From Psammoneis japonica (lineage: Eukaryota), in assembly GCA_008632985.1 (NCBI GenBank), contig QPGO01000047.1, forward strand, positions 243,496-263,495: a stretch of 20,000 bases of DNA, given 5' to 3'. Below the pieces are notes generated by a model. That model did not search any database. It was not told the origin of the DNA and saw only the letters and a list, made by a program, of their open reading frames with translations. A program made the position numbers and the translations under genes. Positions 1,619-20,000 of this stretch are shown one piece after another (within the stretch, counting starts at the first letter, position 1; the number at the start of each line of letters is the position of its first letter).

Positions 1619-3271
1619 CTAGTTTCCAATGTATACTCTGATGATATCCGCGATAGAGGCATAGGTACCAATGACGAGAAACACAAGTCCAGCCAAGAAC
1701 AAAAGGTAGCACTTGATCAATTGTGGCCAGTGTAACTTCCAAGAATTCGGTGCAGGAATACAAATCCATTGCGACTCGACCAAATCGTCGTTTCCATAGT
1801 CCAACCGTTTAATCCAGGCGAGCTCCAAAAGGGGTGGGATCAGTAGAGCCGTTGACGAGCCAGCCAGGGCACCTGCTAGCGAGATTAGGGCTTGTACATT
1901 TGGTACAATGACTGCCACCAAGTAGGTCAACATGACCAGCAGTGCTCGCAAGAGTGGGGAGTCTCCCGGCATGGTCATCTTTGGAAGTTGTGTGGCTATT
2001 GAAAAGACGTTCAAAGATGAGGTACGCGAGTTTGCACTTGAGTCAATCTCGTCGCTTTCAGCGTCACCATTCAACTGTCCATAGTGGTGTTCCGATGCTG
2101 GGGTCATCTCTGAGGGCGATACCGGTCTATGCTCTTCAAGTGGCGGTAGCGGCTCAAACGCCGATAGATCATTGTCCTCATCCGTAGTCCCGTCAGGTCG
2201 ATTGAAATAGTGCAGTAGCTTTCTTGATAGCCAAGGCCCGATGAGTTCCAATGCAGGAAAGAGTTGAAGTGGATAGGTCAATAGTACAGACAAGCTCACG
2301 GCCGTATTTGCCACCATGAGCCACCCCGCAATTGAAGGATCGTCTCGGTATGTTTCAACAAGAAAGGCAGTTACACTTCCATTGGTCACCTTTCCAAATA
2401 CCCAAACACAAGTACACGATACAGCGGCCAGAACAAAAGCAACAAACGTCATGGCTGAAACAAACACTTTTTGGAAGTGCTGCGGTTCTTTCATGGCAGA
2501 CTCAACCGGTAAAATTAGGCAAATGCCTTCATAGGAATAGAGAATTGCACATATTGCCAAAGGAGAAGAGGAAAGGTGGATAGTAGGAGTCTCCTCCGGT
2601 CTGTCACTCCATTTCTCTCCAACCACAACACCCAAGCAGCCAAAGCCGAGAAAGAGCAATAGGGTTGCAACAGCAACAACTGGTGCCAATGCTTTGAGAT
2701 TAGGAAGACAGCTCAGCATCATGACTGCCGGAAGAACCATTGTAATGACAAAACCATGGCCGATATTGTTCACCTCGAGGCGTGTCAGAACAGCAAGCAA
2801 GTTTTCTCCGACAAAGGATAAAAACACGGTACAAACAGCCAGTTGCGTGACGCAGATACAAGCTCTAATGTACGCCTGAAATTTTGTTCCATCCGCCCAA
2901 TGTCCGACATCAGGATACGTAATGTTGGTAGATATGGACGTTGCGGTGCCCTCTTCTTCTCCGTCGTTTTGTTCCGGGTTATCGTCCGCTTGGGTTTGTT
3001 CAATGTATCTCTTTATCTTGACGACGGTCCAGCAGTTGTACGACGTCCAGTACGACATGGCAAATATTGCAATGAAGCCTCCCGGTATTCCCAACTGACC
3101 CACAGCCCACGGAAGACTAAGACACCCCGGGCCGAGGTAGCCCTTGAGCAAGTGAAGAAAGGTCTCGGTGCACGTGGTTTGGTGAAGCTCGTCTTCATCG
3201 TTCTCTGCAGAAGTCACGCTGGTTCGTCTGCTTGTTGATAATTCACCCGTGGCGCTATTGTATTCTCTCAT
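1619..3271 (-). CDS. Amino acid/auxin permease (AAAP, Aa_trans; SLC36/PAT-like) transporter
   Basis: Uninterrupted ORF with about 11 hydrophobic segments. It carries the family motifs 'ETFLHLLKGYLGPGCLSLPWA', 'YSYEGICLILPVESAMKEP.HF', 'LTYPLQLFPA' and 'IPN..ALISLAGAL'. The first in-frame ATG is at 3271; the frame is open to ~3358, so an upstream exon or start cannot be excluded. Confidence 0.9.
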   Translation of the reverse strand: MREYNSATGELSTSRRTSVTSAENDEDELHQTTCTETFLHLLKGYLGPGCLSLPWAVGQLGIPGGFIAIFAMSYWTSYNCWTVVKIKRYIEQTQADDNPEQNDGEEEGTATSISTNITYPDVGHWADGTKFQAYIRACICVTQLAVCTVFLSFVGENLLAVLTRLEVNNIGHGFVITMVLPAVMMLSCLPNLKALAPVVAVATLLLFLGFGCLGVVVGEKWSDRPEETPTIHLSSSPLAICAILYSYEGICLILPVESAMKEPQHFQKVFVSAMTFVAFVLAAVSCTCVWVFGKVTNGSVTAFLVETYRDDPSIAGWLMVANTAVSLSVLLTYPLQLFPALELIGPWLSRKLLHYFNRPDGTTDEDNDLSAFEPLPPLEEHRPVSPSEMTPASEHHYGQLNGDAESDEIDSSANSRTSSLNVFSIATQLPKMTMPGDSPLLRALLVMLTYLVAVIVPNVQALISLAGALAGSSTALLIPPLLELAWIKRLDYGNDDLVESQWICIPAPNSWKLHWPQLIKCYLLFLAGLVFLVIGTYASIADIIRVYIGN

Positions 3272-3630
3272 AATATCAATAGAAAGAGGGCGCGCCTCGT
3301 CATTGGGGTCATCAATGGACACAAGGGAAAGGGAGAGAGGAGAGAGAACTAAGGTACATCAGCAACAACACGAGCTTTCCGCAAACCCTGCGGCGGCATC
3401 ATACCGGTACTGTAGCATCTCGCATCGCATCGCAACTGCGCGAGGTCCGGTGGGTTCGGTCCTCGAGCTATACTCTCCATCGTTTTGCTTTGAATGTTTT
3501 TTGACACCTGTGGACAAACGGGACACTGCGTAGCCAGGGTGTACTTCAGTACTCAGTGCTTCGTGGACAAGTGTACCAAGGCGTACCAACGTGTATCAAG
3601 TGCTTCACGAACGATGGGGAGTGAAAAACT

Positions 3631-3691
3631 TGCGCGAAAAATCGCGCACGCTGAGCAGGTAAGTCAGACGGGACTCATTCAGTCACGTCTG
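3631..3691. promoter_or_regulatory. Two short inverted repeats upstream of the transporter and near the left edge of the degenerate block
   Basis: TGCGCGA-AAAA-TCGCGCA (3631-3648) contains an E2F-like TTTCGCGC on the minus strand. CAGACG-G-GACT-CATTC-AGTC-A-CGTCTG spans 3665-3691. Function is not determinable from sequence. Confidence 0.3.
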
Positions 3692-4000
3692 CACGAATTT
3701 CCTCAAAACAACACCCACCATGCACCATGAGAATCGGAGCGGCGTTTTAGACTGTTGCCAATCCTTTCAACAATATCAACACTATCTACTAGTCTTGACT
3801 ATCGTAAAGAATCAACTTATGTTGCTTGTTTGAAGGTTTTCAGCCAATTGTAAGATGAAAACATGGATTTTGTAATTGCACCACGATTGATTCGACACTC
3901 ATCATTTTCGCTCTTCACTGCATGTCGCGATCGAATCGTATTGCGCCTTTGTTTCATTATGTCACTCATTTTCTTTGTAATGGTCATCTTTGTCACTCAT

Positions 4001-5780
4001 GCACAGAGGCTTGTGATGAAGCATCTTGCAGAATGGGAGGTGCGGCACGCGGCACTGTTGTCGTCCAGACAATGTGCAGTGGCTGTCATGATGGTGGACA
4101 CTGCAGAAGGGCACGTGGACATGATGAGTTGGCTCATTGAGAAGGCATTGCTCGCACTGCTGCTGTCAAGCTGGGAAACAACCAATCAACAGCTGATTTT
4201 GTTGGTTGCGCTTCTGTCCTTCTGTGAAAGCTCTTTGACTCCTGCTTCGATGGATCGCTTGTGCGTCCATCTCAACGACTGCGCCGCTGGTCGTGAGCTA
4301 GAACTGCTGACTGTTGCAAGGGACCACGCGTGGAGGGAAGCTGGTCGATGATTTCCTGGCCCCATCTTCGAAAAATGCCAGAGATCTGCACACGAAACTG
4401 GCAGTGTCATTGACTCTTCGCCACTTTCGAATCAGATGGCCCCGGATGGCAGCAGGTCAGCGGAAGAAGGAATGTGTCCTTTTCAGGTGCTGGAGCGGCG
4501 TTCACAAATGCAACTCGCTTGACCTTCATGCAGTTTGAGCCCGTGCTGCTTGAGTTCCTGTCCATTGAACATTGGCCACACTGAGTCGGTCGACAACATT
4601 GATGTCGATGTTGACAGGCTGCTTTGCGTTGCACTGGCTTCGCATCTGCAATCCCCTTGGCCTTGCCTTTTCGATGTAGCATGACTGCTCTACAAGGAAC
4701 CAGGCCTTTTGCTGACTACAAACAAAAGCCTCCAACGCTGCTTCAGTCGTGCTTGAGACCTGCCAGTCTTCATTGTGCAATGTGCTGGTTCGATCTCCCT
4801 GCTGCACTCGGCTTGTCCGACAAATTGACGCAATGAATGGAACTCGAAGCCCGCCCCTTGATTTGGCAAAGGAACTCGTGTGCCTGTGGAAGGAGTCTTT
4901 TAAAAGAACAAGCACTGCTGTCGATGCAAGTGAAGATCTCCCACCTCCGCTTGGCATGGAATCAGTGCGGTTGCAAGCGGTGACAGCAGGGTGCATGCTT
5001 CCCTTTGGCAGAAAATCCCTCCCACCGAAGCTCGCCCCAATGATTCGATCTCTCGTGACAGCCCTGATGAATGAGTCAAGTGGATCTCGACAGGGATGGA
5101 AATTTCTTCATGTGCTGCTCAGATGTTGAAGCTTCCATCTGTTGGAGACCATCTGAGAGTGAGGCACAGAGTGATGGAGAACATCTGCGTCCTTGTGGAA
5201 CATGAGAAATCATCCACTGGCCTTGATGTCCGTGCCAAAGGCTTCATTGTTGCGGCCGCACATGTTCTTGAGTGACAAGTCCATCATCTTCCAAGTCACT
5301 GCACCATGAATGCCCTCCTTCAATTTGGGCGAGAATGAAGCTGTTGAACAGGTGCAGTGCAATCAATCTGCCACAGACGCATTTTGGGGGTTGTGTCGAA
5401 ATCGCCATGACGCAATGCCGATTTGTTCGCTCGCTTGACAGACTTCACAGTCCAATCTCTCGTGCTTGTCACTTTTGGGTGCCCCAGTGTCCGATGCCTT
5501 TCCCTGGCAGCGTTTGAGTCATCATTGTGAACTCAAAAAAGGGTTGAGGATTTCGGTGAAGCATCTCAGAGATGCTCAAAATGACACATGCATGCCAGCG
5601 AGTTGCACCTTGCTGCAATCGATCATCAAATCTGCTGGGATGTGAGTTCGCGAGTTTGTCAAGCTTCTTCTGTCCATTGTGATGTCTCTCATGACTGATT
5701 CATTAGTTGATTGCCCGACAATGGCTGCTTGGAGTTTTGCTGACTTCGGCACGATTGCCCCTTTGGTGCGAAGGGACCAG
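4001..5780 (+). pseudogene. BTAF1: Fragmented BTAF1/Mot1 (TBP-associated Snf2 ATPase) HEAT-region pseudogene
   Basis: 'EWEVRHAALL' (~4030) resembles Mot1 'WEVRHGA'. 'LPPKLAPMIRSLVTALMNE' (~5020) resembles 'LPEKLNPIIKPLMETIKKE'. 'REFVKLLLSIVMSLMTD...AAWSFA' (~5650-5740) resembles 'PYIVLLVVPVLGRMSD...ATQCFA'. It has multiple stops, frameshifts and deletions, and no ATPase domain. Confidence 0.7.
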
Positions 5781-5988
5781 TCATGTGTTGTTGGAGCAAC
5801 GGACGCCAACGATTCCACCACAAAGGTGAGAGGGCAAGAGCCAGCACACACCACCGAGACATTGTTCCTTCACATGAATGCAAACAAAAGGATCCAGCAG
5901 GGGCTGGCTTCGATGATGGAGGAGGAATCCGATGGCAGCATTGTTGTGCATGCCGGCAACCCCACGTTGAGACTTGCACTTTACGACC

Positions 5989-6340
5989 ATGTCGGACGAA
6001 GAGCAAGAACCACACGATGAATTTGGAAATGCACTGGCCCTGATCTAGGTGACGATTCCTCCTCTTCTTCTTCGGATGAACATGATGAGCATCCACAAGC
6101 TCCTGACGATGCGTCCGACGTCTCTGAAGAAGGCTGTGGCGGTGGTGCCATGGTGATCCCCTCGGATCATCAAGAAGAAGCAGAAGCAGAACCTGTGGGT
6201 GTGATTGTCTTGCACAAAGACAAGGAGCATTGTCCTTCTGCCAATGAGGTTATGGCGAAGAAGTGCGGACGGCTGTTTTAGATGAAGATGCCATGGATCT
6301 TGACGTGCCCTTGGTGGAGCCCATTCAGACAAAGAAAAAC
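5989..6340 (+). pseudogene. EFTUD2: 5' fragment of EFTUD2/Snu114 (U5 snRNP 116 kDa GTPase), acidic N-terminal domain only
   Basis: It reads MSDEEQEPHDEFGN/[fs]CTGPDL..acidic..IVLHKDKEHCPSANEV/[fs]YGEEVRTAVLDEDAMDLDVPLVEPIQTKK. The conserved pattern is 'LYDEFGNYIGP.L...VLHEDK.YYP.AEEVYG..V...V.EED.Q.L..PII.P'. There are two frameshifts. Confidence 0.85.
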
Positions 6341-6377
6341 GCCGTTGCTGCTGCTGGTGGTGGTGGAGTTTCGGATG

Positions 6378-6668
6378 TGTCTTGCCATTCGCGAAGCCGT
6401 CTTGGGTTCAAATCATCTGGACATGGCTGCCAGTTGCAACAACATTGCTTTGGTTCTCGAACATCAGGGCAAGCACGAGGAGGCCTTGATGGAGCATCTC
6501 AAGGCACTTGCCATCTTGGGGACAAATCATCCCGACACGGCTTCAAGGCACAACAACATTGGTGTGGTTCTCAAACATCAAGGCAAGTTCGAGGAAGCCT
6601 TGCTCGAGTTTCAAAAGGCACTTGACATTCATCAGGCCGTCTTGGGTCTAAATCATCCACATCAATGA
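6378..6668 (+). pseudogene. Fragment of a kinesin-light-chain/nephrocystin-type TPR repeat gene (about 2 repeats)
   Basis: It reads LAIREAVLGSNHLDMAASCNNIALVLEHQGKHEEALMEHLKALAI and LGTNHPDTASRHNNIGVVLKHQGKFEEALLEFQKAL. The typical pattern is 'HP..A.SYNN.G.V...QGKYEEAL..YQKAL', so Tyr positions are now Cys or His. Confidence 0.85.
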
Positions 6669-7981
6669 TTGCAGCTGCCACAAGGAATCATCAGTGATTG
6701 GTGCGGGACCAAATGATGGCCATGGGTGAAGGAGAAGTGCACAGAACCCCATCTGTGGAGCGCGTCGAAACCGTCTGTTTCAGGCTGGTGCTCCGGTCCA
6801 TGGAGAAGAATTGAGCACTTCTCTTTCACTTCATCATTCAAGAGGGGTCTCTGACAATGCGTCGGCGGAGCGACAAAAAGAGGGAGCTGCTCCAGCTTCA
6901 ATTTGTTTGACCCGCACGATGTGATTGAATCCTTCCTTGCACCCAATGCACCTTGAACTTGATTCCAATGCCGACGGTTGTCTCTTGTCAATGGACTGCG
7001 ACGATGACGGTCGCAGCACTTGTGATGTCGTTGCACACTTTGATGTCGTAATTTTTGTTTTTGCACCACGCCAAGCAGCCCCAGTCCGAGCATGGCGAAT
7101 CCACACATTGATTTACACAAGCAAAGGATCGATGACTGTGAATGTGTGCAGGTGCTGGTTGGTCATGTCAGCTCAGAACGACGGCGCCGAAAGCTGTGGC
7201 AAGAGTGAATTTGATGTGGTTTGATGAGTCATCCTGTTTCTGATGACTGTTTCAGCCTTTCATTGAAGGAGTTCGTCCATGGATTCTTGCGCGACAGATC
7301 TTGTCAAGGTGGCAAAGAATGTTGACAAAAGCGCTGATCTCTTTGTCAGCCTTCACCATGGGAACGTTGCCAGTGCTTTGAACACCTGGATGTCGTGTGA
7401 CCAATTTCGTTCTCTGAGAGAAGTGGCTGCATCTCTGTTTCATCATTTTCTGCTGGTCTCATGAGATGAAATTGTTTCACAACATCTTGGATCAAACGAC
7501 GGGAGTGCTCTTCTTCTCTCCCTCATCTGCACCAACAAGGATGCCGTCGTGCCACAGAAGTGGGCCGACTTGGACCCTTGCTTCATTGTGAACAGCCAAG
7601 AGGTGAAACTTCACAGCTTCACAACATCGGCAAGTTTGCATCTGTTTGCTTTCCCTTGAACTGGAGCGATTTGGTGTCCTTGCAAACTGGTTTGTCGATT
7701 TTAACAATGGCATGTCTCCAGGTGCATGAGGTTGTCTCAATGGTGGCCCACCAGCACAAGGAAGCCGATGAGTGGGAGCTGAAGAAACTTTGGTTGAGAA
7801 AAGGGAAGAATCATGCTTTGACATTTGTTTGACGCCGGCTGCTCCAACCTCTTCGACTCTTCCCGCAGGGCTCCTGTTCTTGCAGAGAAAGGTGAAGAAG
7901 GTGGAGGTCACTCGTGCTGTTAACAACCTCACAGCAGCCGGAAACACTTCTCCAAATGGGAACCAGCTTTCACAACTCAGA

Positions 7982-8442
7982 ATGAATTGAGCGGATCTGT
8001 TGTCTGTGGCATTTGTTGGGACCTTTTCGGGATGCACAAATCCACTTTTACGAAGGGGATCTGCGGAAGCTGAAGCCGACGACGAGCCACGAAATGAAAA
8101 CAAAGCATCTTTCTCCCTCCGACGTTCGCTTGCAGAACTTCAACGAATTCAAGTGATGGCATGGCCCCGTGTGCTGTGCTCAATCAATGGGGTTCTTTGT
8201 TGTGCTTCAAGGTTTTGGCAACATTGGATTTGACGCTTGCCGTGCTGGCATGCAATGCCCTTTCTTTGGTGTTTAGAAGCAGTTTCGGCACCAGCCTTTT
8301 TCTGGGAGAGCGGGTGGACAAACCTTTTCGAGCCTCTGCTGGGGCATCCTTGGTTGTGACGGGTGTTGCCATCTGCATGTCATCAAGAGAGGCAGATCGT
8401 CAATCACCTCGGCCAGATGCAACAAAAGAAGGAGAGCTGTGA
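7982..8442 (+). pseudogene. TMEM234: Near-full-length TMEM234 (UPF0546, DMT-like membrane protein) pseudogene
   Basis: It reads MN*ADLLSVAFVGTFSGCTNPLLRRGS...LNQWGSLLCFKVLATLDLTLAVLACNALSLVF...LGE...AGASLVVTGVAICMSS. TMEM234 reads 'VAALWGGTQPLLKR...[32 protein letters not shown]...LGE...AGMVLTVIGISLC'. There is a premature TGA at codon 3 and a frameshift near 8160. Confidence 0.8.
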
Positions 8443-8899
8443 CGAGAAAGTTGTTTGACTTTCTGCACAAATGGGACTTTTTCCTGTGTGAAGAACACAC
8501 TCACTGTGTGCAGCACCTTGTTTCACAGTGAAGGGTTGAAATGATGCCAGGCACCTCCAGAAAACGCTGGACGATTTCGCTCATGCTATGATGACATGTG
8601 GTTGCAACTTGGCCGAAGAGGGAAGAGTATCATGCAGCTTTCCCGGCTGTTTGTGATTCAGTCTTGACTTGGACCTGCGTGTGCTTCTAAAAACTGGACG
8701 AGTCATCAGGAAACAGCGGTGGTGGCATCGGCTTGGCTCCTGCCTTCTCTTCGGCACGTTGCATGATTGGAGTTTTGAGTTGCGGGTGTCAAACTAGACT
8801 GTGCCCAAGAAGACAGTGCGGGGGAAGTTGCAAAGACTCTCCAGGAAGAAATTGTAGACTTGGTGGAAGAGCGAGCGACTGTGGCAGTGGACTTGTTGA

Positions 8900-9338
8900 A
8901 TCAACCGGCAGCTCTGGACAATGCGAGAATTGCCGAGAAGAGGAGTTTGAGCAAGAGTTGAGAAAGGAAGCACAGGATGCGATGCAAAGGCTCTCATCAA
9001 GTGGAGCCTCCACGTCAACAATGGCGGATTCGGCAGCGCTAGAAGCACACGAGACCAAAATTGTTCGACTGATGGAAGCCAACAAGAAGGCTGAAGAAAA
9101 GCACTCTGGTGAAATGGAAGAAGCTCAGGGGGGAAGTTCAATGGTTGGAGTTGGCAAATGCTGCATTGAAGGTGGATCTGGACCAAGCAGAAGAGACATG
9201 CAAGTGCTTCAGCGCATTTCACAAGAACGAATCGATGCAGAATGGGAAAAGACAGATGATTTGATTCTCACCTTGGAAGATGCCACAGATCAGCTTCGAC
9301 CAGATGAGGATGTCCCCATCAAAAGCGATCGCGAATGA
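8900..9338 (+). pseudogene. Fragment of an unidentified coiled-coil protein gene
   Basis: E/K/Q/A-rich helical stretches (EQELRKEAQDAMQRL...LEAHETKIVRLMEANKKAEEKH; ERIDAEWEKTDDLILTLEDATDQL) lie inside the degenerate block. No family was recognised. Confidence 0.35.
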
Positions 9339-11319
9339 CTCCTGTCCATGCTAGAAACAGCAGTGCTTGCACATTGACAAGTCAAGCTGTTGCTCATGTT
9401 GATCGAGACCACATTGCAGAATCAACTTGAGAGTGTGAAGAATGACAATCTCAGCATGAGCGGGGCTGGACCAATGGATGCCAGGGTCATGGATCATTTG
9501 AGTCGACACAGGCCGAAGGCACTGGACACAGCTCCAGTCAAGACTGCACTGCATCTGCAGCAGCAACATGGGTCACCATCCTCTTTCAAAACAAACCTTG
9601 CCCACCACTTGCAGACACACATTGGAAGACGTCCAGGCAGCCTTTTCCACCAAATCCAAGGCCAAATGCAACACGAAATGATTCATCACCAGGAGTGCCC
9701 TGGGTGGCGGGATGGCAATGATTGGGAACAAGAAGTGCACTGTGCTGCCCCGCCTCATTGGGACACTGTTGGACACAAAGACCCAATCTGGAGGAAGCAG
9801 CCATTGCAGAAACATCCATCATGGAACCCGATTGTCCCGACAATTGGCTTGCAAGCCAAGGTGCCGTCAGGTGGTTTGGACCGGTCAAGGAGGGTGACAG
9901 GCCGCGCTCTTTGGATGAGAGCGGAGCATGCATTGGCTGAATTCAGAGCTTTGAGGATTGGGCTTGTGTTGATCGCTGCTTTGGAAATGGGCGGAACAAC
10001 AGGTGCTTTCAAGTCGTCAAAGAGCCCGCAAGCGAGAACAGTGCAACACTCTCTGGCTTGAAACCTTGACGACACTGCCAAATGGAAGTTTTCTGAGCTG
10101 TTGTCCTCAGCTTTGTCATTGCTGCAAAGCCTCTGTTTTCCCTCAATCTAGCTGGGTGTGACTGCAGCAAGCTCCAATCTCAATGTGTTGTCATTGGCTG
10201 TGCGTGTGTGCAGGAGCATTGATTTCAGCGACTCAGCGAAGCTTCGTTGAACATTCGGTTTGACCGAAACTTGATGAGGTTGTCTTCTTGGAAACCACAT
10301 GGTGCAAACGCAACTAGCATCATGTTGCACTCTTTTCACTTTCGCACACTGGCTTGCACAATCTGATGGCACAAGATGGGAGTGCACCAAAACATTCATC
10401 CCACCCTGCACAGTGTTCCGACTGCCGTGTTGGCCAATGTCAACAGCCACGCAAGCAGCAAAAGTGGAAAGTGGAAAGCAATCTGCTGTTGTTCTTGTCA
10501 TGACGGATGTCATTCGACGTCATGACTGGTTGAATTGTTCCAAACACAAAATGCGCATGATGCATGGACAGGCCAGGAATTGTGTGGATGATGCATCCAG
10601 CAAATGGTTGTGGTTCTTGGCAACAACAAGATTGTGCAAGGACCCATTTGATTGAAAAGATGGAAGCACATGAATGACAAAGTTCTGTGTTCATTCTAGA
10701 TGCCACGGAATGTTTTCCTTCATTGCCATGGAGAGGAGCCGCCATCCTTCCTGGCACACAAACAAAGCCATTCCGTGACACCAATGCTTGCCTTGACATT
10801 TCCATTCTTCCACAATTCATTCTCCACATCCGAAACAAGCAAGGGTTTGGTTCATTGACTGCGGCTGATCTTGAGCAAGTGCAGAGTCGTTGTTTCATTG
10901 AAGCACCAATCATGCCTGGCACACATTTTGTTGCGGAAAACATGAGTCGCGGGGCGGGACCCACTGTTGCTTGAACCTTGGCACTTCAACAAAGACTGAC
11001 TGCCACATCGTTTCAAGAGTCGGGTGGTCGAACCGGGGCACAAAGGGTGCATTGCTACGTTGACAAGGAAGATGAAAAGCAATGTCAGCAAATGCATCTC
11101 GAATGAAAAGAAAAACAGACACGAAATCGACTTACGTTGGGGGTGCGTTCGAATGCAATGCAACACAATGAGTGCACCCCACGGCAGTTTGAAATGCATG
11201 ACAAACTCATGCAATGTTGGCAAGTCTTTGATGTGCACAAAAGCTGTTTTGTGCCGTGAAATGGAGTTGAGAGATGCCCCCATGCATGCTCGATTTCCAG
11301 AGTGCAAAACAAGCAGTCA

Positions 11320-12891
11320 ATGAGTCTGCGGCGACTCATGATCCTTGCAGATCTGCGCACGACACGCCCAGCATTAGACAAAATAAAGACACTGCCCGTC
11401 ACTCCACTGAGCCTGGGCGAGCGTCTCAAAGAGACAGGATGGGCTGCTTTCTCCTCATTCTGCGCAACAACAGCAACAACATCCACAGGATCAATGTCTT
11501 CATCTGGCAACTCCGCGTTCTCCAAATCTTGACCCTCTCCTTCAAGATCAATGCCATGTTGCAACAGCCCATCATCCACAGGTTTTCCAAATCATCTGTT
11601 GGTTCTTCCACATCTGGCAGATCATTCAAGGCATTGTCAGGCGCCTCGTCTGCTGCCAGAACGACTTCCTTGGCAACAGAATTGTCATCAACAGCAACAG
11701 CAGGATCAGCCAATGGCTCCTCTTCACCCTCACCTTCTAGCACAATGTCATGATGCAACAACCTGTCATCCAAAGGATCACCCGAATTGTCCAACGGCAC
11801 TTCCACATCCAAGGCATCATCTGGCTCCTCACGTGCTTCAACGGCTGCATCCACCTGAACAACTTCCTCCTCGGCGACAGGATCAGCAGCAGCAGCAGCA
11901 ACAACAACAGGATCAGCATTGGGTCCCTCAACCACTGCATCTGCCGGAGCAACAATGGCCTCGACCGGTTCAATTGCCGCTGGAGTCTGCACCCATCCAT
12001 GCCAATGATCATGCCTTGGATGCGTTTGACACTCACGAATGCATTGGTCTGGTTTTCGCTCGTGCTCAAGCAGCGCATCAGCCTGTTGCTCATCATTCAG
12101 GATGGGAATGACACGAGTGTAACGTGGTTGTCGAAGAACGCCTTTGGCCGCCCTGCCAGTGGGGATTGGAGGAAGGTCACTGACAAAGACATTCTTGATC
12201 AGTTCTCCGTCCGGCAGCCACTCTAAATGCCGCTGACGACACTGCCGAGCCAGCTTGTCTTGCTCCTCGTCGACTCCACTCAAGGCAAAGTCCAACTTCC
12301 GATCAGATGGCGCTGGAATCTTGGTTGCATGCTTTGGATCTCGAAGAACTTTTGGAGCAGCCATGCCGGTTGGGACGGCACGATCGCGAACACCGTGCAG
12401 GTTCTGCTTCAGTCCAGCGGGTCTCCATCTGACACTCCCACGGCAAAAGCATTTGCGCTTCAAGAACAGCAGCCAAGTGACCACAAACTGAAAAGCATCA
12501 CAGACAAGCAGAAGAACGAATGCACGGTCCATGCAACCAATGCAACCGCGAGAGCAGCCGAAACAGCATCGCATGCTCGATCCCAAAGAAGTGTGGTGAC
12601 GTCGTCAATTTCCACAATTCGGCAGCACAAGAAACAGACAGTGCTGCCAATCAACTTCAGCGAGCAGCACACGAACACCACAGCAAATGCAGCGAGGAGA
12701 GCTGTGCAGACCGCAAGGACAAAGGCCACCAGTTCTTCAATCATGCAGCGAATCTCGTCCACGGCAATGCACGAGAAAATCCACATTTCCCAAAGCAAAC
12801 CGCTGGCGATTCGGCCGTGGTTCTGCTTGCCGTGAAATGCACGTAGCAGGAGATTGACAAAGAGTGTGATCAGTGCAATGCATGCAATCAT
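11320..12891 (-). pseudogene. Frameshifted gene for a hypothetical protein: hydrophobic N-terminus, acidic Ala/Val/Asp/Glu-rich repeat region, basic RRS.RL tail
   Basis: Three consecutive minus-strand ORFs (12460-12891, 11426-12586, 11085-11579) join into one architecture. It has an internal repeat DDRLLHHDIVLEGEG / DDGLLQHGIDLEGEG and the tail LRRSPRLSGVTGSVFILSNAGRVVRRSARI. It is Cys/His-rich and nearly Tyr-free. The 3' end is approximate. Confidence 0.5.
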
Positions 12892-13973
12892 GATGGGGGT
12901 AATGGCATCAACAAAGACAGATTGGTAAGAGTGTGTTTCAATGCAAGCAAAACTTGAAATTGTGTGGTGAGCGAGACGTCGCTCGTTGTTGTGGCTGCGT
13001 CACATTCGTGAATCGTGAATGTGTAGAAACTGTACCGGTGAAGCCCGTAGAAAAGCCGACAGTCAGTCACGCTTTTCAAGTTTTGACGTGATGTTGCGGC
13101 ACGTTTGCATTCGGTTACTCATAGGCTCTAAGGTAGAAACAATCAGAGGCCGGGATTGATGTTGGATGTATCCATGATGAGTATTATCTATTATAGAGCT
13201 TTTCTCTGCAATGAAATTCAGTGTTGCTACGACAGAGCCCATTCTTCTTAGGCCTACTACAAGTACGGTACGCTTCAGACCCAGAAGTAGCATGCAGATT
13301 CTGGTGCTTGCTCCCGTGACACGCCACAAATCAAACTAGTTGAACGATCCTCCCGGTGATACCATGGTAACTGACAACGAATGCATTCTTGATTGAAGAC
13401 GTCGACAGGGTAAGACTGTCCTCGTCGTTGAGGAGTAGCCTCACTGAGTCTGAGCTCGACGGAAACGGTCCCACAATCCAACAAAGTAAGAGCCGAACTA
13501 AGAGTATCGTCGGATTTCTTTTTGCTTTGTTTTGGCAACACGAGTGCCAATACTTTATTCAGAAGTAAGTCACCGAGAAGTACAATTGATCTTTTCAAAC
13601 CATGCCATTCAAATAACTCCATTTTGCACACCATGCGCGACGCTCTGAAGGTCCTAATTCCGGTGTTATTTGAAGGGAGCATTGCCATGCATCATGTGAA
13701 AAAAGTTTCGTAAAAGGGACGACAGAGGATGATTCCAAGATAAGGCACATAGCACCAGATCCTCTTTTCTCCGAAAAGGCATTCTCTCAAAGCCATAGGC
13801 TCATTCCCAAGCGCCATCCAAAAATAATGATAAACAAATGTTGCTTCGCAGAGTGATCTCATGATGGTAAGTATGAACTCGTAGGCAGCCCATTCTTTTG
13901 CTTGATGAAACTCGTTCGTGAGGATCCTTAGCGTCCAGAGCGAATCCACGTGGGCGGCACATAGCCAGGAGAG

Positions 13974-15461
13974 TCAGCGACTGTTGGTGTTAAAAGCGAG
14001 AAACGTCACAAGCAAGTAGCAGAGATGAAGATTTGTGAAAGCCTCCGGCATCCAATTCCTGCTTGCTTCTGGTCCATACCTGTCCCTGGCAGCCAAACTA
14101 TTGAATTGATTCTTGCTTCCGCCATGACTCAGTAGGATCTTGATACAACCGTCCCGTCCAAGCTGACACGCCAGCATTAGCGGTGTAGTCGAAATCTCGT
14201 CATCATTTTGCTCTCGACTTGTCTTTGTATATCTGTTCTTCCTCTCGAAATCGTCATTCAGCCACAACATTCTAAGCAAGTGCGGCCTATCCAAGCAAAT
14301 GGCAAGTCCAACAGGCGAAAGCTTTTTCATTGCGCAAAAGCCATGGACCTCACTTAAGCCCAACTCCTTCAACTCAACCGGCTTGTTCAGCCCAATGTTG
14401 ACACCATGATCATTTCTGTAGACGTCCAAGAGTTGCGAAACCGCAACGGAATCATCGTTTTTGACGGCAAGGTGGAGTGGATAAGGATGTCGGAGATAGT
14501 CATTGACCATGACGACGTCGGCTTTCGCCGTATCTGAAATGCCTCGACAAGCTATATGTGATTCATCAGTTTCAGTGTCTATTGATGCGTCAGACGAAGC
14601 GGTCGAGCCACTGCTACTGTCATCGCTGCTTTCCGAAGGAGAGTCCTCTTCGTGCAGCCGTTGTTCTCGTTGTTGCTGTTTCTTTTCTCTGATAATTTGC
14701 CTCCATCGGTTGCGCAGTTTTGCCATGCCCCAAGGCGCCGATTGGGTATAGCATGATGATACCGATAACTGCTGAATATCTCCCACGGAGGAACAAGTTT
14801 CGTTTTTCGTTTCTAGTGGCTCGGCTACTAACGGAGGTCTGTCTTGGGCTGCAGCTCTTGCTGAGAGAGTCGTAAGTACTGCATTCCCACGCTCTTTCTG
14901 CTCTATCTGCTCTAATCGTTCGTTTTCTTGCTGCTCTTTCTCTTTTCCATGAGCCTGCCACGCCACATCCGACCACTTCCCCTCGTCGCTCGTTTCTCTT
15001 GTCCTATTATGGCTTGCTTTTGTGAAGGATTCACGCACGTCCAACGGAGGAAACAACGACCGAAATTCTGCAAAGGACAAGGCTGTATCCTTTTTATCTT
15101 TAACGTGGCAACCATCAACGGATTGGGTTGTTGATGTACTTTGCTTGTCAATTTTGTCGCGTCGTTTTCGGTTATTTCTGTGATGTTGTTTTCTATTGTT
15201 TTTCTTATTCTCTGTTGCGTTTGTTCCCGCACGGCCGGTATCGCTGTCGTTTGTATTATTTTTTGACGTATCCTTTTCTTTGTCTGCTTTTGTCTTTTCC
15301 TTTCTATTCCTGCGTTTCCTTTGTTGTTTGTTTCTTTTTCTGGTTACTTGTAACGTTGAGCTGCCGCCGCTGTCAAACGATTCGCGTGTGCCTACAGACG
15401 AATGTGCCAAAGGAGGTATGTTTGACGGCAGGAAAACGGGAGCATCAGCTCTCAACGACAT
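13974..15461 (-). CDS. PAM2-motif, basic/low-complexity and ankyrin-repeat protein (possibly 3'-truncated)
   Basis: ATG at 15461 gives MSLRADAPVFLP (PAM2-like), followed by a K/R/N-rich region. Ankyrin-like repeats include YPLHLAVKNDDSVAVSQLL, SPVGLAICLDRPHLLRML and TTPLMLACQLGRDGCIKILLSHG. A probable intron (GTATGG at 14079 to CAG at 13981) is followed by a stop two codons later. TpA content is normal. Confidence 0.7.
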   Translation of the reverse strand: MSLRADAPVFLPSNIPPLAHSSVGTRESFDSGGSSTLQVTRKRNKQQRKRRNRKEKTKADKEKDTSKNNTNDSDTGRAGTNATENKKNNRKQHHRNNRKRRDKIDKQSTSTTQSVDGCHVKDKKDTALSFAEFRSLFPPLDVRESFTKASHNRTRETSDEGKWSDVAWQAHGKEKEQQENERLEQIEQKERGNAVLTTLSARAAAQDRPPLVAEPLETKNETCSSVGDIQQLSVSSCYTQSAPWGMAKLRNRWRQIIREKKQQQREQRLHEEDSPSESSDDSSSGSTASSDASIDTETDESHIACRGISDTAKADVVMVNDYLRHPYPLHLAVKNDDSVAVSQLLDVYRNDHGVNIGLNKPVELKELGLSEVHGFCAMKKLSPVGLAICLDRPHLLRMLWLNDDFERKNRYTKTSREQNDDEISTTPLMLACQLGRDGCIKILLSHGGSKNQFNSLAARDRYGPEASRNWMPEAFTNLHLCYLLVTFLAFNTNSR

Positions 15462-15682
15462 GCTACTACGAAGAAGCAAGAAGGATGTCACTGTGTTGCA
15501 TGGATGGATGTTATGTATGAGGAGGCGTTGCAACGTTGCAAAGTTAATGACTCTGATTTCCGGCACCACGCGCTATGCTCTTGTTACTTTGTTTCTTTGT
15601 GTCTCTCACCAGTCACGAGTCAACAACCGAGTCTGATTCACGGATGACGCTTCCGGTCATGGATCTCTTCTTCCGGAAGAAA

Positions 15683-15893
15683 TGTCCGTTGAGTCTTCTA
15701 GCGATAGTAATCGGAGTGACACACGACCGTTAGGTCATAATGTCATCTCCAATCCCTCGTGAGATCTTCTCATAATTCGTATCTTTAGCGTATCTTATTG
15801 TCCCAAAACTACTTCTTATCATCCTCTGTTGTATTGTACAACCTCAAGAGAGTCCTGAACTCTCCATCCTACACAGTGTATTGTTGTATCCCA
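15683..15893 (+). repeat. Putative 5' LTR (start uncertain)
   Basis: It ends ...TATCCCA three bases before the PBS. The candidate TG start at 15683 follows a 14-bp palindrome. It cannot be confirmed without the 3' LTR. Confidence 0.45.
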
Positions 15894-15896
15894 AGT

Positions 15897-15908
15897 GGTT
15901 ATGAGCCC
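15897..15908 (+). promoter_or_regulatory. Primer binding site, copia half-tRNA-iMet type
   Basis: GGTTATGAGCCC differs by one base from the GGTTATGGGCCC PBS of Drosophila copia-type elements, and sits directly after the CA-ending segment. Confidence 0.65.
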
Positions 15909-15978
15909 AATCCACACACCGGCATCAACTCGCAACGGAGTTGCTGCCACTCGTTCGTCTCGTTACAGACAACATCCC

Positions 15979-16065
15979 ATCCAACGGCGATCTTCTATGT
16001 CGCAATCCAACGGCGATCATCTGTGTCGCAATCCCTGCCTGCTAATCGATCCTCTATGTCGAATC
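15979..16065 (+). repeat. 26-nt tandem repeat in the retrotransposon 5' leader (2 copies plus a partial third)
   Basis: ATCCAACGGCGATCTTCTATGTCGCA (15979-16004), ATCCAACGGCGATCATCTGTGTCGCA (16005-16030) and a partial CGATCCTCTATGTCG (~16047-16061). Confidence 0.85.
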
Positions 16066-16075
16066 ATCCACAACC

Positions 16076-19000
16076 ATGTCCATGGATCCTGACACCGTCA
16101 AGATGTTTGCTGAAGCCTTCGCCAAGATGCAAACCTCGACCAACCCTCCTGCGATCCCCACGCCGCTTCGCGGCGGCACCCACCACTCTCATGGAGTGCA
16201 TCTGGGTGGTTCAGCTCTGAACAACAAGTGTGAGCAGACCGACACCCGCACCTGCCGTTTTGCCTCGCAACGTCGCCATCCGAAAGCTGTCGACTCTGTC
16301 GAGCGATCTCTCCGAGATCAACTCGCTTCGGCAACCACATCCAAGTTCAACGGCCAGATTGAGTTGTCCAACGGTTCCAGCACTGAACTGGACAAAGACC
16401 ACTTCGTCAAGACCATCCAGGACTTGATCGAGTTGCATGGACAAGAAACTTTCTACCATCTCAAGAAAGTCGACGGCAAGGTCGTGCACCTTTTTGATCA
16501 TCTTCACGCCTTCACTGTCAAAGACCTTGAGAAGGAATGTGAGACCCGTGTGGCGGCTGCAGGTGACGAAGGCTACGATCAGCATGAAATCGATGACATC
16601 GGCTCATCACAACTCATCGTCAAGTCGCGCATCACCGAAACCTTCCGTGAAAAGATTGAAACCAAGTTTGGTCACTTGAAGAACTGCAAGGATCTTCCGG
16701 GGTCTGTCTCATTTATGATGGCTCTGGATGCCTGCAACGCCAGTGCTCTGGTTGACGTCAAGGCCGCCAAGGAAAAGTTGAATGACTTAACTCTGGACAC
16801 CTGCCCTGGTGAGGACTGCGCCGAGCTTGCAACCGAAGCTCTGCGCCTGCTCAAGATCATGCAGACGGACTGTGCGCCACCAGTTGAAACTGGGTCCACT
16901 GTTTTATCTAAGGTGTCAAAGACATCCTCCGAGTTTTTCAATCGTCAAGTTTTTGCCAAGCTCGACTCCGTCAAGCGCTTGGAGCGCAAATGTCGCTTGC
17001 GTGACCCGGCAGAAGTCCCCAAGGATGCCGACCACGCGGATCTTGGACCTGTTGGCCTCATTGGCTGGATCACCAAGACCCATGGCGAGCTCATTGGCGA
17101 TGAAGATTGGCCTGCCTCAGCAGCCAAGCTCCCGGAATCCAACCTCACCAAGGACAACTCGGAAAAGCAATGCTGCGGCTGTGGCAAGGTTGGGCACACC
17201 AAACGCACGTGTCCCACCTGCAAGGAGCAATGCAAGAAGGACAAAAAGGGCACGGCGGACAAGTCCAAGGATGACCCTCCGGATGTCCGGAAGACTGACC
17301 CTTCCAAGAAACCACCCAAGCCGGCCTGGCGTTTCGTTCACAAAGGTGCCACTGTCACCGACGAGAAAGGCACGACCTGGCACTGGTGCGACAAGTGTGT
17401 GAACAAGGAAACGGGCAAGAAGGGCATGCATCAAGGCCACTCCTCCGCTCAACACACCGGGAAACCGTCTGTCAAAACCGAAACCACCGCTGCGGCAAAT
17501 TTATCTGCTGTGTCGGACCCCTCTTCGGGCATTCCTTTTGGTCCTCCCGAGCAGACGACGTCTCCGCCTACAGACAAACCCTCTGACCCTAACGAGCTGG
17601 TTTGTTGCGGCATGTGGTGTGCACCTGTGGACGACTCTTTGAGTTCGACTCCAGTGACTACGACCGTCACGTTCACTCCTGCTCCATCGGCCGAGAGGGA
17701 GACTGCCGTGGCCAAACCCGCTCCCATCTTGGTTGAAACGGTTGACCCCGAAGACGCTGACGATTGCTCCGAGCACTCCGACGCTCACTCCTCTTTTGAC
17801 TCCCTGCCGTCAGCTGTCGAGCCATTTCCGGCCTATGCCATGCATGAGATTCAAAATCCGGACGTGTTTTATGACACGATCGCAACTCACGTGGAAGGTC
17901 TGTCCGACGACGTGTTAGACGATCTCGTTTCCGGGGCAAGCATCCCACCTTTCGAAGACAGCTACGAGCACTTACCTCCAAGCACCCAGCATCGCGGTTT
18001 CGAATTTTACGATCCCGAACCCCAAGATGTTGATTGTGGCGTCGAGGAGGCAACGCCGAGCTCTCGTCTTGAGCTCTTCTGGAACTTCTTGAAGCTCCGA
18101 GTTTTCTGGCTGTTTGCCATGTTCTGGGAAACGGTGCTGCACATTTGCTGTGCGCCGATTCCTGTCTTACCTCGTCGCATGCGCGGTAAGGCATTCATCC
18201 CAACCATTCACGGTTTCCCCTCTACCTGGATGGTGCTGACTGGAGCCATCATGGTCTGGGCGTCTGTTTTCAATGGTCAGCTTCCCACGCATCCATTCTC
18301 CAATGTCCCCTCTCGCTTCTCCAAAGCCAGCTCTCAGGTCTGCTCGATCATTGAAGAACTGGACTATGAGACAGTGTTAGATCCGGGCAGTTTGGTGGAA
18401 TGCAACAAGATCAAGGCGCGACAAGTGCTTGCCGAATTTGTGGAGCGCGATCCGGACCATTGTCTGAGCAAGAAATTCACGCAGCTCTGGGAGAACGACG
18501 TGTGCTCTTCCCCAGGCCGCTGTGTCCCTCCAGCTCTAGAAGACCCCGAGTCCCACTTCGACACCTGTGATTCAGAGGAAGCCCTCGGCCCGCTCCCGAC
18601 CGAGCCGAGCCACTACTTTGACACGGTTGAGGAGCTCTCTCCGGACTATTTTCGTTTCGACGAGCTGTCCACCAAGTTTGGTTTCGTGGACACCACTCCA
18701 TGGCAAGACCCTGTGAAGCTTCTCCAGGCAGCTGCTGACGGAACCGAAGCCTGTCCCACTCATACCTCTGTGCAGGTGTTGACAGGCCAACGTTCTTTAG
18801 CACAACTCGCCGCCGACCCGCAAGCTTTGCTGAGCCTGGCACATGAGCGCCACACCGTCACATGCGATGCTGGCGCATCCTTGGCCATCACTTGCGATGA
18901 AAACGACTTTGTCGGACCTCTGACGATCCCTGATGGCCCATTGAAGCTTGGGGGTCTAGCAAATGGCTTAACCATCGCCGGCATCGGACCCGTCTCCTGG

Positions 19001-19999
19001 GTTTTCCATGACGAGGACGGCTCTGAGCTCGTCGTCAAGACGATGGCGCACCATGTGCCTCAGGCCGGACAACGTCTTCTATCCCCACAACGCCTCTACA
19101 GCAAGGAACATGGCGTGACAGGAAAATGTGAGGGAGACGAGGACTCATTTCGAGTGCATGTTGATGGCGCCGGTTCGCTCAAGGTCGCGCACGCGTCAAA
19201 TCACTTGCCGGTTGCGTCTGTGACCAACGGGGTGGCACCCGCTCCTCAAGTCAATCTGTCTGTGTTGCACGAGGACAACCAGAACCTCACCACCGGTCAG
19301 AAGCTCCTTCAAGAATGGCACTTCAGGTTTGGTCACCTGAACATGCCACGCATCCAAGGCCTGCTTCGGGCCGAACCTTTTCTCCGACCCAAATTCAAGC
19401 ATGCTTCGCGTTGCGACATTCCGCGGTGCGAGGCATGCGAATGTGCCAAAGGACATCGCCGAACCCTCAAGTCTGCCAAACATGCGGCTGCTCCAGAGCG
19501 TGAGGGTGCTCTTCGAGCCGAGCATCTACGCCCAGGCCAAGCCGTCAGCGTGGATCACTTCGAATCCCGTCTCCTCGGCCGAACCTGCGACTCCTGCGGG
19601 AAGGCCTCGTCCCAGCAATACAAAGGAGGCTGCATTTTTGTGGATCATGCCTCCGGTTACCTGCATGTTGAACACCAACTTGGTTTCTCTGCTGTGGAAA
19701 CGGTGCGAGCGAAGCAAGCGTTTGAAAAGCACGCGATGGACCACGGCGTCATCATCCAAGAATTTCTTGCCGATTCTGGCGCTTTCAAGGCCAATGCTTT
19801 TGTGCAACACATGCGACAGCACGAACAACGTCTACGTTTTTGCGGAACCAACGCCCACCATCAGAACGGCGTCGCAGAACGCGGCATTCGCTCTGTCTCC
19901 AACATGGCGAGAGCGATGCTTCTCCACGCATCCATCCGTTGGAAGGGGGGCACAGACAGCTCTTTATGGCCCATGGCCGTGTCTCATGCCGCGCACATT
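16076..19999 (+). CDS. Copia Gag-Pol polyprotein (Gag, CCHC knuckle, aspartic protease, integrase), 3'-partial; frame open but probably inactivated by missense changes
   Basis: ATG at 16076, after an in-frame TAA at 16043, and no stop to the window end, which is why the ORF track omits it. The zinc knuckle CCGCGKVGHTKRTC is at 17171-17212. The protease reads VTCDAGASLAIT (~18857) and RLLSPQ. The HHCC region reads WHFRFGH...CEAC. The integrase core reads VSVDH, ADSGAF and HHQNGVAER, followed by LWPMAV. Confidence 0.9.
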   Translation, partial: MSMDPDTVKMFAEAFAKMQTSTNPPAIPTPLRGGTHHSHGVHLGGSALNNKCEQTDTRTCRFASQRRHPKAVDSVERSLRDQLASATTSKFNGQIELSNGSSTELDKDHFVKTIQDLIELHGQETFYHLKKVDGKVVHLFDHLHAFTVKDLEKECETRVAAAGDEGYDQHEIDDIGSSQLIVKSRITETFREKIETKFGHLKNCKDLPGSVSFMMALDACNASALVDVKAAKEKLNDLTLDTCPGEDCAELATEALRLLKIMQTDCAPPVETGSTVLSKVSKTSSEFFNRQVFAKLDSVKRLERKCRLRDPAEVPKDADHADLGPVGLIGWITKTHGELIGDEDWPASAAKLPESNLTKDNSEKQCCGCGKVGHTKRTCPTCKEQCKKDKKGTADKSKDDPPDVRKTDPSKKPPKPAWRFVHKGATVTDEKGTTWHWCDKCVNKETGKKGMHQGHSSAQHTGKPSVKTETTAAANLSAVSDPSSGIPFGPPEQTTSPPTDKPSDPNELVCCGMWCAPVDDSLSSTPVTTTVTFTPAPSAERETAVAKPAPILVETVDPEDADDCSEHSDAHSSFDSLPSAVEPFPAYAMHEIQNPDVFYDTIATHVEGLSDDVLDDLVSGASIPPFEDSYEHLPPSTQHRGFEFYDPEPQDVDCGVEEATPSSRLELFWNFLKLRVFWLFAMFWETVLHICCAPIPVLPRRMRGKAFIPTIHGFPSTWMVLTGAIMVWASVFNGQLPTHPFSNVPSRFSKASSQVCSIIEELDYETVLDPGSLVECNKIKARQVLAEFVERDPDHCLSKKFTQLWENDVCSSPGRCVPPALEDPESHFDTCDSEEALGPLPTEPSHYFDTVEELSPDYFRFDELSTKFGFVDTTPWQDPVKLLQAAADGTEACPTHTSVQVLTGQRSLAQLAADPQALLSLAHERHTVTCDAGASLAITCDENDFVGPLTIPDGPLKLGGLANGLTIAGIGPVSWVFHDEDGSELVVKTMAHHVPQAGQRLLSPQRLYSKEHGVTGKCEGDEDSFRVHVDGAGSLKVAHASNHLPVASVTNGVAPAPQVNLSVLHEDNQNLTTGQKLLQEWHFRFGHLNMPRIQGLLRAEPFLRPKFKHASRCDIPRCEACECAKGHRRTLKSAKHAAAPEREGALRAEHLRPGQAVSVDHFESRLLGRTCDSCGKASSQQYKGGCIFVDHASGYLHVEHQLGFSAVETVRAKQAFEKHAMDHGVIIQEFLADSGAFKANAFVQHMRQHEQRLRFCGTNAHHQNGVAERGIRSVSNMARAMLLHASIRWKGGTDSSLWPMAVSHAAHI

Positions 20000-20000
20000 T

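Follow-up and report, generated by a model that had tools for sequence, protein, structure and literature searches.

A likely footprint of TpA-directed mutation in a copia retrotransposon and a nearby 9-kb block of a diatom genome

Repeat-induced point mutation (RIP) of ascomycete fungi changes C to T, for the most part at CpA; TpA and stop codons arise from it, and the GC content falls. APOBEC3G deaminates the cytosines of retroviral minus-strand complementary DNA (cDNA), and the outcome is G-to-A change on the plus strand. Here we are concerned with a footprint of a different kind, the change of TpA to CpA or TpG, in a stretch of 20,000 nucleotides from the diatom Psammoneis japonica (GenBank assembly GCA_008632985.1, contig QPGO01000047.1, positions 243,496 to 263,495 of the forward strand; hereafter the window). 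The footprint appears in the interior of a Ty1/copia long terminal repeat (LTR) retrotransposon and, separately, in a block of 9 kb.

The closest described case is that of the alga Bigelowiella natans. According to the available portions of the preprint, 231 of the 302 new mutations of mutation-accumulation lines lie in two integrated viral regions; A>G and T>C make up nearly all of the mutations in these regions, and every A>G or T>C among them is at TpA (Mettrop et al., bioRxiv 10.64898/2026.01.13.699255). The same portions describe 124 genomic clusters of windows that are poor in TpA and rich in CpA+TpG, an enrichment of reverse transcriptase and DDE (endonuclease) domains among the TpA-poor genes, and an ADAT2-like adenine deaminase as the candidate enzyme (bioRxiv 10.64898/2026.01.13.699255). 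A search of the literature on hypermutation and TpA found the signature only in this preprint, and nothing on TpA hypermutation in diatoms. A signature resembling TpA hypermutation in a diatom thus seems to add a new host lineage to one reported only once before, in an unrelated alga.

We consider it likely that the copia interior and the 9-kb block both bear the footprint of a process that turns TpA into CpA or TpG, and that the active-site loop of the element's protease holds two of its hits. The process would comprise A-to-G and T-to-C transitions at TpA only; it would rewrite Tyr, Ile and other TpA-bearing codons while the open reading frame (ORF) stays open. In the loop, Ile would have become Thr (ATA to ACA) and Thr would have become Ala (T|ACT to T|GCT, the bar marking a codon boundary). 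The Cys between them, at codon 930, would be either a third hit, on a Tyr specific to the lineage, or a separate Phe-to-Cys transversion. The enzyme may be an adenine deaminase of the ADAT2/TadA type that prefers 5′-T-A-pyrimidine, and the process may serve in defence.

The copia ORF has 35 TpA sites, an observed-to-expected ratio (O/E) of 0.18. Across its 8 windows of 500 bases the ratio is 0.0-0.39, against 0.43-0.82 in the 14 flanking windows of that size and 0.5-0.8 in the host genes of the flanks. It ranges over 0.46-0.89 in 38 related metagenome loci, with a minimum of 0.30 among the 266 one-kb windows of these loci. The loss is independent of codon phase. Per 100 codons, 19 relatives have 3.19 TpA in phase 1-2, 5.15 in phase 2-3 and 7.31 in phase 3|1, where the T and the A belong to adjacent codons. 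The same region of the window has 0.79, 1.57 and 0.00, respectively, and the whole ORF 0.92, 1.15 and 0.61 (O/E 0.12 for T|A at boundaries). Because all codon phases lose TpA, and the boundaries lose most, the footprint is one of DNA mutation and not of codon bias or selection on the protein. A preliminary description, made from the window's letters and ORFs, had argued for such a dinucleotide-level process from the loop, and the argument holds well beyond it: the 9-kb block, which is not copia, is depleted even more. That a mutational process from TpA to CpA/TpG is real, we regard as very probable.

Three other causes were rejected: codon bias, as TpA at codon boundaries is the most depleted; CpG deamination alone, which is unable to remove TpA; and editing of sense-strand RNA followed by reverse transcription, as sense T-to-C products are in the majority.

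Of the 120 best-listed homologues of the encoded protein, the comparison used the 106 whose BLAST match took in more than 370 of the query's 429 residues and left out the other 14. Conserved Tyr and Ile of the ORF have been swapped for His/Cys and Thr/Met. Tyr is down to 0.92%, the lowest among 121 proteins compared (median 3.04%), and Ile to 2.91% (median of relatives 4.72%), while His stands at 4.82% (3.32%) and Cys at 3.21% (1.84%). The window differs from the family at 33 of 213 conserved columns. Eight of these are changes of Tyr to His or Cys, or of Ile to Thr or Met, and none is the reverse; the 106 relatives have a mean of 0.67 such columns and a maximum of 4. Conserved Tyr is lost at 7 of 9 positions, compared with a mean loss of 2.0 in relatives. 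Against the majority consensus there are 52 differences, of which 33 are revertible in one step; 12 of the 33 reversions restore TpA (7 C>T at CpA and 5 G>A at TpG).

Could these be ordinary, unrelated substitutions in an ageing dead copy, the fit to TpA being a coincidence eased by the abundance of CpA and TpG? Reversals are easily found where 24 bases hold 6 CpA/TpG, the Phe-to-Cys change at 930 requires no TpA, and relatives too have some Tyr-to-His and Ile-to-Thr changes, up to 4 per protein. The counts nevertheless make this improbable. Changes of the TpA type are 8 of 33 in the window and on average 0.67 of 33 in the 106 relatives, with no change in reverse, and all seven of the C>T one-step reversions lie at CpA. 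Moreover, 1308 codons without a stop or a frameshift are unlike the product of unbiased decay.

The process itself leaves frames open. Change of TpA to CpA or TpG cannot make a new stop codon, and it removes TAA and TAG, because at a codon boundary the T becomes a third-place C and the A a first-place G, and within codons just TAA could yield TGA. The open frame of 1308 codons is therefore no sign of activity. In six frames, the 9-kb block has 431 TGA, 32 TAG and 23 TAA stops, against 274, 135 and 112 in the flanks. Long ORFs, of up to 392 amino acids, run in several frames on both strands of 4000-13020 because TAA and TAG are nearly absent there. The 392-residue ORF (11429-12604, minus strand) had no homologue at E <= 0.001 in an exhaustive search of 1.84 billion representative proteins.

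An intact, TpA-poor ORF would also be expected if low TpA were an adaptation that an active lineage has had for a long time, either evading a TpA-directed defence or avoiding UpA in its RNA, with the altered protease loop (D-A-G for D-[T/S]-G) tolerated or complemented in trans. Depletion is indeed fullest where it is silent (no TpA at 3|1 boundaries, where about 28 are expected), RTG codons (R, purine) are up and RCA codons down, and contig depth suggests that about 10-20 related copies exist. We nonetheless give this view little chance. ATA, which has no silent escape, is absent from the ORF (as is GTA), yet 10 TTA and 5 CTA survive, although they could have escaped silently; it is therefore context, not selection, that predicts the survival of TpA. 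Furthermore, seven of nine conserved Tyr are gone, as is the catalytic Thr/Ser, which all 106 relatives have, and the 9-kb block, in which there is no long meaningful ORF, has this loss on both strands as well.

The block (Table 1) is depleted throughout, with TpA O/E of 0.0-0.17 in every one of the 18 successive 500-base windows that make up 4001-13000, and its edges are sharp. The products are in excess and symmetric: O/E is about 1.5 for CpA and for TpG alike, while CpG is at 0.4-0.9. The sum CpA+TpG is >= 1.52 in 12 of the 18 windows, so that the block qualifies by the window criterion used for B. natans. Nothing viral or mobile was recognised in it by tblastn with copia proteins, Pfam, PHROGs, Atlas or the exhaustive ORF search. 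Specifically, tblastn of 120 relatives against the window gave no copia similarity outside 16133-19999; Pfam, run on 43 ORFs, gave just TPR families, TMEM234 and a weak match to the EFTUD2 N-terminal domain; PHROGs gave no match for 40 of the 43 ORFs; and an Atlas search with 9378-10058 gave no usable match. The TPR fragment has His or Cys at sites where, we presume, such repeats usually carry Tyr.

The direction of change in the block can be read from sibling sequences. Contigs of three public sequencing runs, all from one sample, were aligned to the whole window at 80% likeness; 40 of the 2139 differences were listed, none of those 40 being within 16076-20000, and two of the three runs gave no contig cover over copia. 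By contig depth, 4003-10672 is roughly single-copy, and over 10673-13340 the depth rises several-fold. For 10790-12635 there are 21 listed differences: six have TpA in the sibling and CpA or TpG in the window, none is the reverse, and five are of the CpG type; at the sibling-TpA sites the window's letter keeps roughly single-copy depth. The 6:0 ratio gives the direction of the change and, with the retained depth, argues against an artefact of base calling. The single-copy part of the block has four well-supported differences listed, none of which restores TpA. In bins 3336-4002 and 12674-13340 the depth is several-fold over single copy, though the DNA just beyond the block edges is normal in TpA; repetition alone is thus no predictor of depletion.

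It should be noted that, if base calling or assembly took modified bases at the TpA of silenced DNA for C or G, such an error could account for the sharp edges of the regions and for the palindromic target. Such an artefact is most improbable. Besides the depth of the window's letter at the sibling-TpA sites and the lack of TpA-restoring differences in the single-copy part, the public-run contigs cover 30 of 30 window bins and contain 0.59 of the sampled 31-mers of 10001-20000, a region that is by our reckoning about 69% TpA-poor. CpG in the block is low, not raised, and the 3.9-kb ORF is without a frameshift.

The few TpA that remain follow a flanking-base rule. The flanks have 93 RTAY, 83 RTAR, 62 YTAY and 40 YTAR (Y, pyrimidine), whereas the block has 1, 8, 9 and 19, respectively (RTAY vs. 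YTAR against the flanks, p = 2e-8). The ORF retains 2 RTAY, 1 RTAR, 23 YTAY and 9 YTAR (RTAY vs. YTAR, p = 0.001). ATAT and GTAC are at zero in both block and ORF, and in the block CTAG stands at about 78% of its density in the flanks. The rule fits a per-strand preference for an A that precedes a pyrimidine, and it recalls TadA, which edits U-A-C of a tRNA loop. All three proposed sites in the protease loop would have belonged to the most mutable classes, ATAT and ATAC.

Block and element differ in strand symmetry, and the two-strand character proposed in the preliminary description stands for the block but not cleanly for the element. A 5′ pyrimidine on the sense strand is present at 32 of the 35 surviving TpA of the ORF, compared with 413 of 851 in relatives (p = 2.6e-7), whereas the 3′ base is without effect (25:10 vs. 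535:316, p = 0.37). RTAR and YTAY survive at 1 and 23, against 157:254 in relatives (p = 3e-4). The loss in the ORF is strand-biased, toward sense purine-T-A, because its survivors carry a 5′ pyrimidine while the 3′ base is neutral. On the plus strand, purine-T-A occurs 10 times in 15705-15887 and only 3 times in 15888-20000, the switch falling within a few bases of the end of the putative 5′ LTR, which itself has a normal TpA load (19 TpA, 10 with a 5′ purine).

This asymmetry would be expected if an adenine deaminase acted at 5′-T-A-pyrimidine on the single-stranded minus strand during reverse transcription, rather than on the chromosomal duplex, the LTRs being spared as they become double-stranded early. 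Editing of cDNA agrees with the switch at the LTR end and with the composition of the survivors. It agrees also with a 7:5 ratio of CpA-type to TpG-type reversions, with a gain of His exceeding that of Cys in the protease-integrase part, and with the Ile-to-Thr change in the loop. As the explanation of the footprint, however, it is rather unlikely. Five of the 12 TpA-restoring reversions are sense TpG products, two of the three loop changes included, and those two would need another route. The 9-kb block lacks similarity to copia and is symmetric between the strands (19 YTAR, 8 RTAR, 9 YTAY, 1 RTAY), and the LTR limits that this account leans on are inferred. For B. natans, the available portions of the preprint place the origin of the mutations in the integrated, single-copy DNA itself (bioRxiv 10.64898/2026.01.13.699255). 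We leave the strand bias and the sparing of the LTR, which misfit a simple two-strand process, as an unexplained feature.

In the protease loop, the letters GTC ACA TGC GAT GCT GGC GCA TCC at 18857-18880 are in frame with the ORF from 16076 and encode V-T-C-D-A-G-A-S. The pattern in relatives is [V/I/L]-[I/V/L]-[F/W/L/M/I/V]-D-[T/S]-G-A-[S/T], and the window's V-T-C-D-A-G-A departs from the retropepsin signature hydrophobic-hydrophobic-D-[T/S]-G-A. D-[T/S]-G is present in 106 of 106 relatives and D-A-G in none, so that D-A-G is unique to the window copy among those compared. Whether it might be a fixed variant of the family had been posed as a check on the TpA account; its absence from all the relatives says that it is not.

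The preliminary description had three reversals, ACA to ATA, TGC to TAC and GAT|GCT to GAT|ACT, restore V-I-Y-D-T-G-A-S, one of them over a codon boundary, and they do. Two of the three proposed hits gain from the comparison with the family. From Ile, the sole one-step route to the Thr codon ACA is from ATA, a TpA-to-CpA change; from Thr, the one-step route to GCT after GAT is T|ACT to T|GCT, a TpA-to-TpG change over the boundary. These reversals are above chance since two of the three give the consensus residue of the family (Ile in 95 of 106; Thr in 60 of 106, the rest Ser) and since the ORF is nearly free of TpA. Hence I929T and T932A, both single steps from consensus, are quite probably hits of the TpA process. 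The third proposal lacks such a basis in its Tyr intermediate (Phe in 84 of 106 relatives, Tyr in none). The Cys codon TGC could be reached in a single step either from TTC (Phe), through a T-to-G transversion, or from TAC (Tyr), through TpA to TpG. Indirect support for a Tyr step comes from the conserved Phe columns: of the three changes there, two are F>C and one is F>Y, and the second F>C column, at 1018, has Tyr in 34 of 106 relatives. For Cys930, the chances of a hit on a lineage-specific Tyr and of a Phe-to-Cys transversion are evenly balanced.

Codons of the loop were read in 22 related DNA loci. The Ile codon at 929 is ATT in 10, ATC in 9 and ATA in 3; the Asp codon at 931 is GAT in 18 and GAC in 4, with GAT followed by A in 8. 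At 930, TTY is found in 15 and TGG in 3, and TAC, ATG, GTT and ATC in one each. The ATC TTC type, which the preliminary description had set against its own proposal, occurs at the level of the family. At 35-73% protein identity, these codons show only that the proposed ancestral codons exist in the family.

The Thr-to-Ala change destroys the D-T/S-G signature, and so the protease of the window copy is most likely dead. The matching change in HIV-1 protease, T26A, is described in the consulted part of the source as a dimer-dissociation mutation, the mature mutant being monomeric (PMC11187873). By analogy, the D-A-G protease is probably inactive.

Several points weigh against our reading. In the loop, only half of the 6 CpA/TpG dinucleotides in 24 bases were used for the reversals, so that restorability is cheap, and the family consensus accounts for two of the three changes, position 930 being Phe in the family and Tyr in 0 of 106. 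The ancestral codons at 18860-18871 are inferred ones. Two of the three loop changes are sense-strand TpG products, whereas the survivors in the ORF point mainly to loss of sense purine-T-A, and the putative LTR of the same element is untouched. In the ORF, CpA+TpG O/E is 1.09-1.39; its windows pass the TpA cut-off used for B. natans but fall under the 1.52 used there for CpA+TpG. Nor is an excess of products over relatives visible, in a comparison made without the ancestral composition (C|A 1.51-1.61 vs. 1.43; T|G 1.27-1.29 vs. 1.30). The ORF is rich in GC and CpG, and one relative, L001, is already low in TpA. From the rates we estimate that the TpA hits in the ORF could number from about 40 to about 100, maybe nearer 40.

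Codon-boundary TpA is rather low in three of the related metagenome loci, L021, L016 and L001 (O/E 0.27-0.38), and L021 has very low CpG as well. They could be milder cases of the TpA process in other diatoms.

The loop is that of a protease of the retropepsin type, encoded by a Ty1/copia LTR retrotransposon of a diatom. The order of copia domains, gag zinc knuckle, protease and integrase, is present, with the reverse transcriptase beyond the window end; the motif in the gag part we take to be a CCHC zinc knuckle. A homologue search with residues 900-1308 gave 469 matches. Among the best 120 of these, identity is at most 69% locally and at most 61% where the match spans most of the query, those named by organism are from the diatom Fragilaria crotonensis, and in most the copia-type reverse transcriptase domain PF07727 follows the integrase. 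The Pfam matches of the ORF itself are below threshold: 22.2 bits against a cut-off of 28.4 (E 1.3e-4) for PF13976, and 19.5 bits against a curated cut-off of 27 (E 0.0012) for Pol_BBD, PF22936. The latter is present in many relatives according to a precomputed domain list. A 207-residue protease piece gave 5 matches among proteins of similar length, all at <=51% identity.

For 18827-19270, AlphaFold gave a model based on 16 relatives (pLDDT 85.9) that is consistent with this assignment. Foldseek found no match to it in the PDB at E <= 0.001, the best being XMRV protease at 4.7e-3. In the structural alignment (VIA rows), the 33 best rows are all retropepsins, including DDI1 RVP (Z 7.7, root-mean-square deviation 3.1, 105 aligned residues) and HIV-1 protease (Z 6.6, root-mean-square deviation 2.8, 81 aligned residues). 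The Z values are middling but the match list is uniform, and the predicted fold qualifies as retropepsin-like.

A repeat search found no LTR pair and no terminal repeats within the window; the 3′ LTR is outside it. The evidence for the putative limits of the 5′ LTR is given in Table 1. The bin that contains it, 15342-16008, is the peak of contig depth, and TGG at 15896 is a possible start of the primer-binding site. Two public-run contigs agree with the host side as far as 15554; the letters that they have beyond this point (235 and 19) are not in the window. The ends at 15554 could mark a repeat boundary or an allele free of the insertion.

Outside the block and the element, the window holds host genes of ordinary composition. 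All 15 organism-named matches of the amino-acid transporter, from 12 species or strains, are diatom, at <=57% identity. One contig omits 586-681, which has GT..AG ends and may be an intron. In the spacer between host genes, at 1315-1487, a direct repeat of about 85 bases stands in tandem; it is imperfect, with 83-87% identity.

Table 1. Positions of features in the 20,000-nucleotide window (relatives: the 106 compared homologues)
Feature	Position	Strand	Details
CAF1-family ribonuclease end	3-683		E 1e-22; ordinary composition
Amino-acid transporter	1622-3271	minus	E 2e-54; ordinary composition
TpA-poor 9-kb block	4000-13020		37 TpA, O/E ~0.06; sharp edges at ~3985 and ~13020
TPR_12 fragment	6282-6665	+	Pfam E 1.7e-29; inside block
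TMEM234-like fragment	8098-8439	+	Pfam 36.9 bits vs. cut-off 30.1; inside block
Ankyrin-repeat protein	13977-15569	minus	Ordinary composition
Inferred 5′ LTR	15554-15893	+	340 bases, TG...CA; from TG/CA ends, 2 contigs ending at 15554 and depth jump in bin 15342-16008
Copia-type gag-protease-integrase polyprotein ORF	16076-19999	+	1308 codons, stop-free, 3′ open at window end
CCHC-type gag zinc knuckle (presumed)	17174-17212	+	Position computed
Protease domain as modelled	18827-19270	+	148 amino acids; retropepsin-like predicted fold
Protease active-site loop V-T-C-D-A-G-A-S	18857-18880	+	Codons 928-935 of the copia ORF
Thr929 (ACA)	18860-18862	+	Relatives: Ile 95, Val 6, Leu 4, Thr 1
Cys930 (TGC)	18863-18865	+	Relatives: Phe 84, Trp 10, Leu 4, Met 3, Ile 3, Val 2, Tyr 0
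Asp931-Ala932 (GAT GCT)	18866-18871	+	Relatives: Asp 106; at 932 Thr 60, Ser 46
Gly933		+	Relatives: Gly 106 of 106
Integrase N-terminal zinc-binding region and catalytic core	19307-19999	+	Truncated by window end
Integrase landmark VSVDHFES	19544-19567	+	
Integrase landmark LADSGAFKA	19766-19792	+	
Integrase landmark NGVAERG	19865-19885	+	

If the footprint is true, TpA-directed hypermutation also occurs in diatoms, which are major marine primary producers, and acts there on LTR retrotransposons; it would then be a widespread eukaryotic genome defence and not an oddity of one alga. The window would add to the picture a flanking-base rule (purine-T-A-pyrimidine lost, CTAG kept), fitting TadA/ADAT-type enzymes, and a strand bias in a retroelement with sparing of the LTR. 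As the process is unable to make stops, a transposon ORF that looks intact in such a genome may well be inactive. Regions of this kind could be flagged in annotation by low Tyr, high His/Cys and the absence of TAA/TAG in all frames.

A more far-reaching proposal, which we hold to be unlikely at present, is a diatom defence of the adenine-deaminase type with a 5′-T-A-pyrimidine preference and two modes, one acting on the minus-strand cDNA of retrotransposons and the other on silenced chromosomal blocks, on both strands. If it were true, the cDNA mode would account for the untouched LTR and the loss of sense purine-T-A, in a restriction similar to that by APOBEC3 with the opposite chemistry. The long open but dead frames left behind would mislead gene callers and might be a source of new coding sequence.

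Among known systems, the proteases of Ty1/copia elements (PF22936) and those of DDI1 RVP and HIV-1 provide the frame for the loop. Like them, the window protease has a retropepsin-like predicted fold, with the invariant Asp and Gly kept, and lies between gag and integrase; unlike them, it has D-A-G instead of D-T/S-G, and its Pfam score is below the curated cut-off. With RIP, the window shares context-dependent transitions, sharp-edged blocks in repeated or foreign DNA and the disabling of transposons. The window, however, loses TpA, gains no stops and rises in GC, and part of the block is single-copy by depth. RIP was rejected as the cause because the direction is opposite (TpA O/E 0.06-0.18; CpA/TpG 1.2-1.5). 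The likeness to APOBEC3G lies in strand-biased, context-specific transitions in a retroelement whose LTR is least affected; the differences are that the window's changes are A-to-G and T-to-C at TpA, and that a block without a retroelement is affected too.

The comparison with B. natans, as far as the available portions of the preprint extend, is the closest. The hosts differ, a chlorarachniophyte with measured mutations in one case and a diatom with a footprint rather than a rate in the other. The depletion is far deeper in the window (O/E 0.06 and 0.18) than in the giant-virus region of B. natans (0.45). The flanking-base rule and the strand bias in a retroelement belong to the window, those portions of the B. 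natans text mentioning neither flanking bases nor diatoms. There the targets are foreign or mobile DNA, which the copia element fits, whereas the 9-kb block holds TPR and TMEM234-like fragments. Common to both are that TpA alone is hit, that TpG and CpA are the products, and that the effect is regional with sharp limits.

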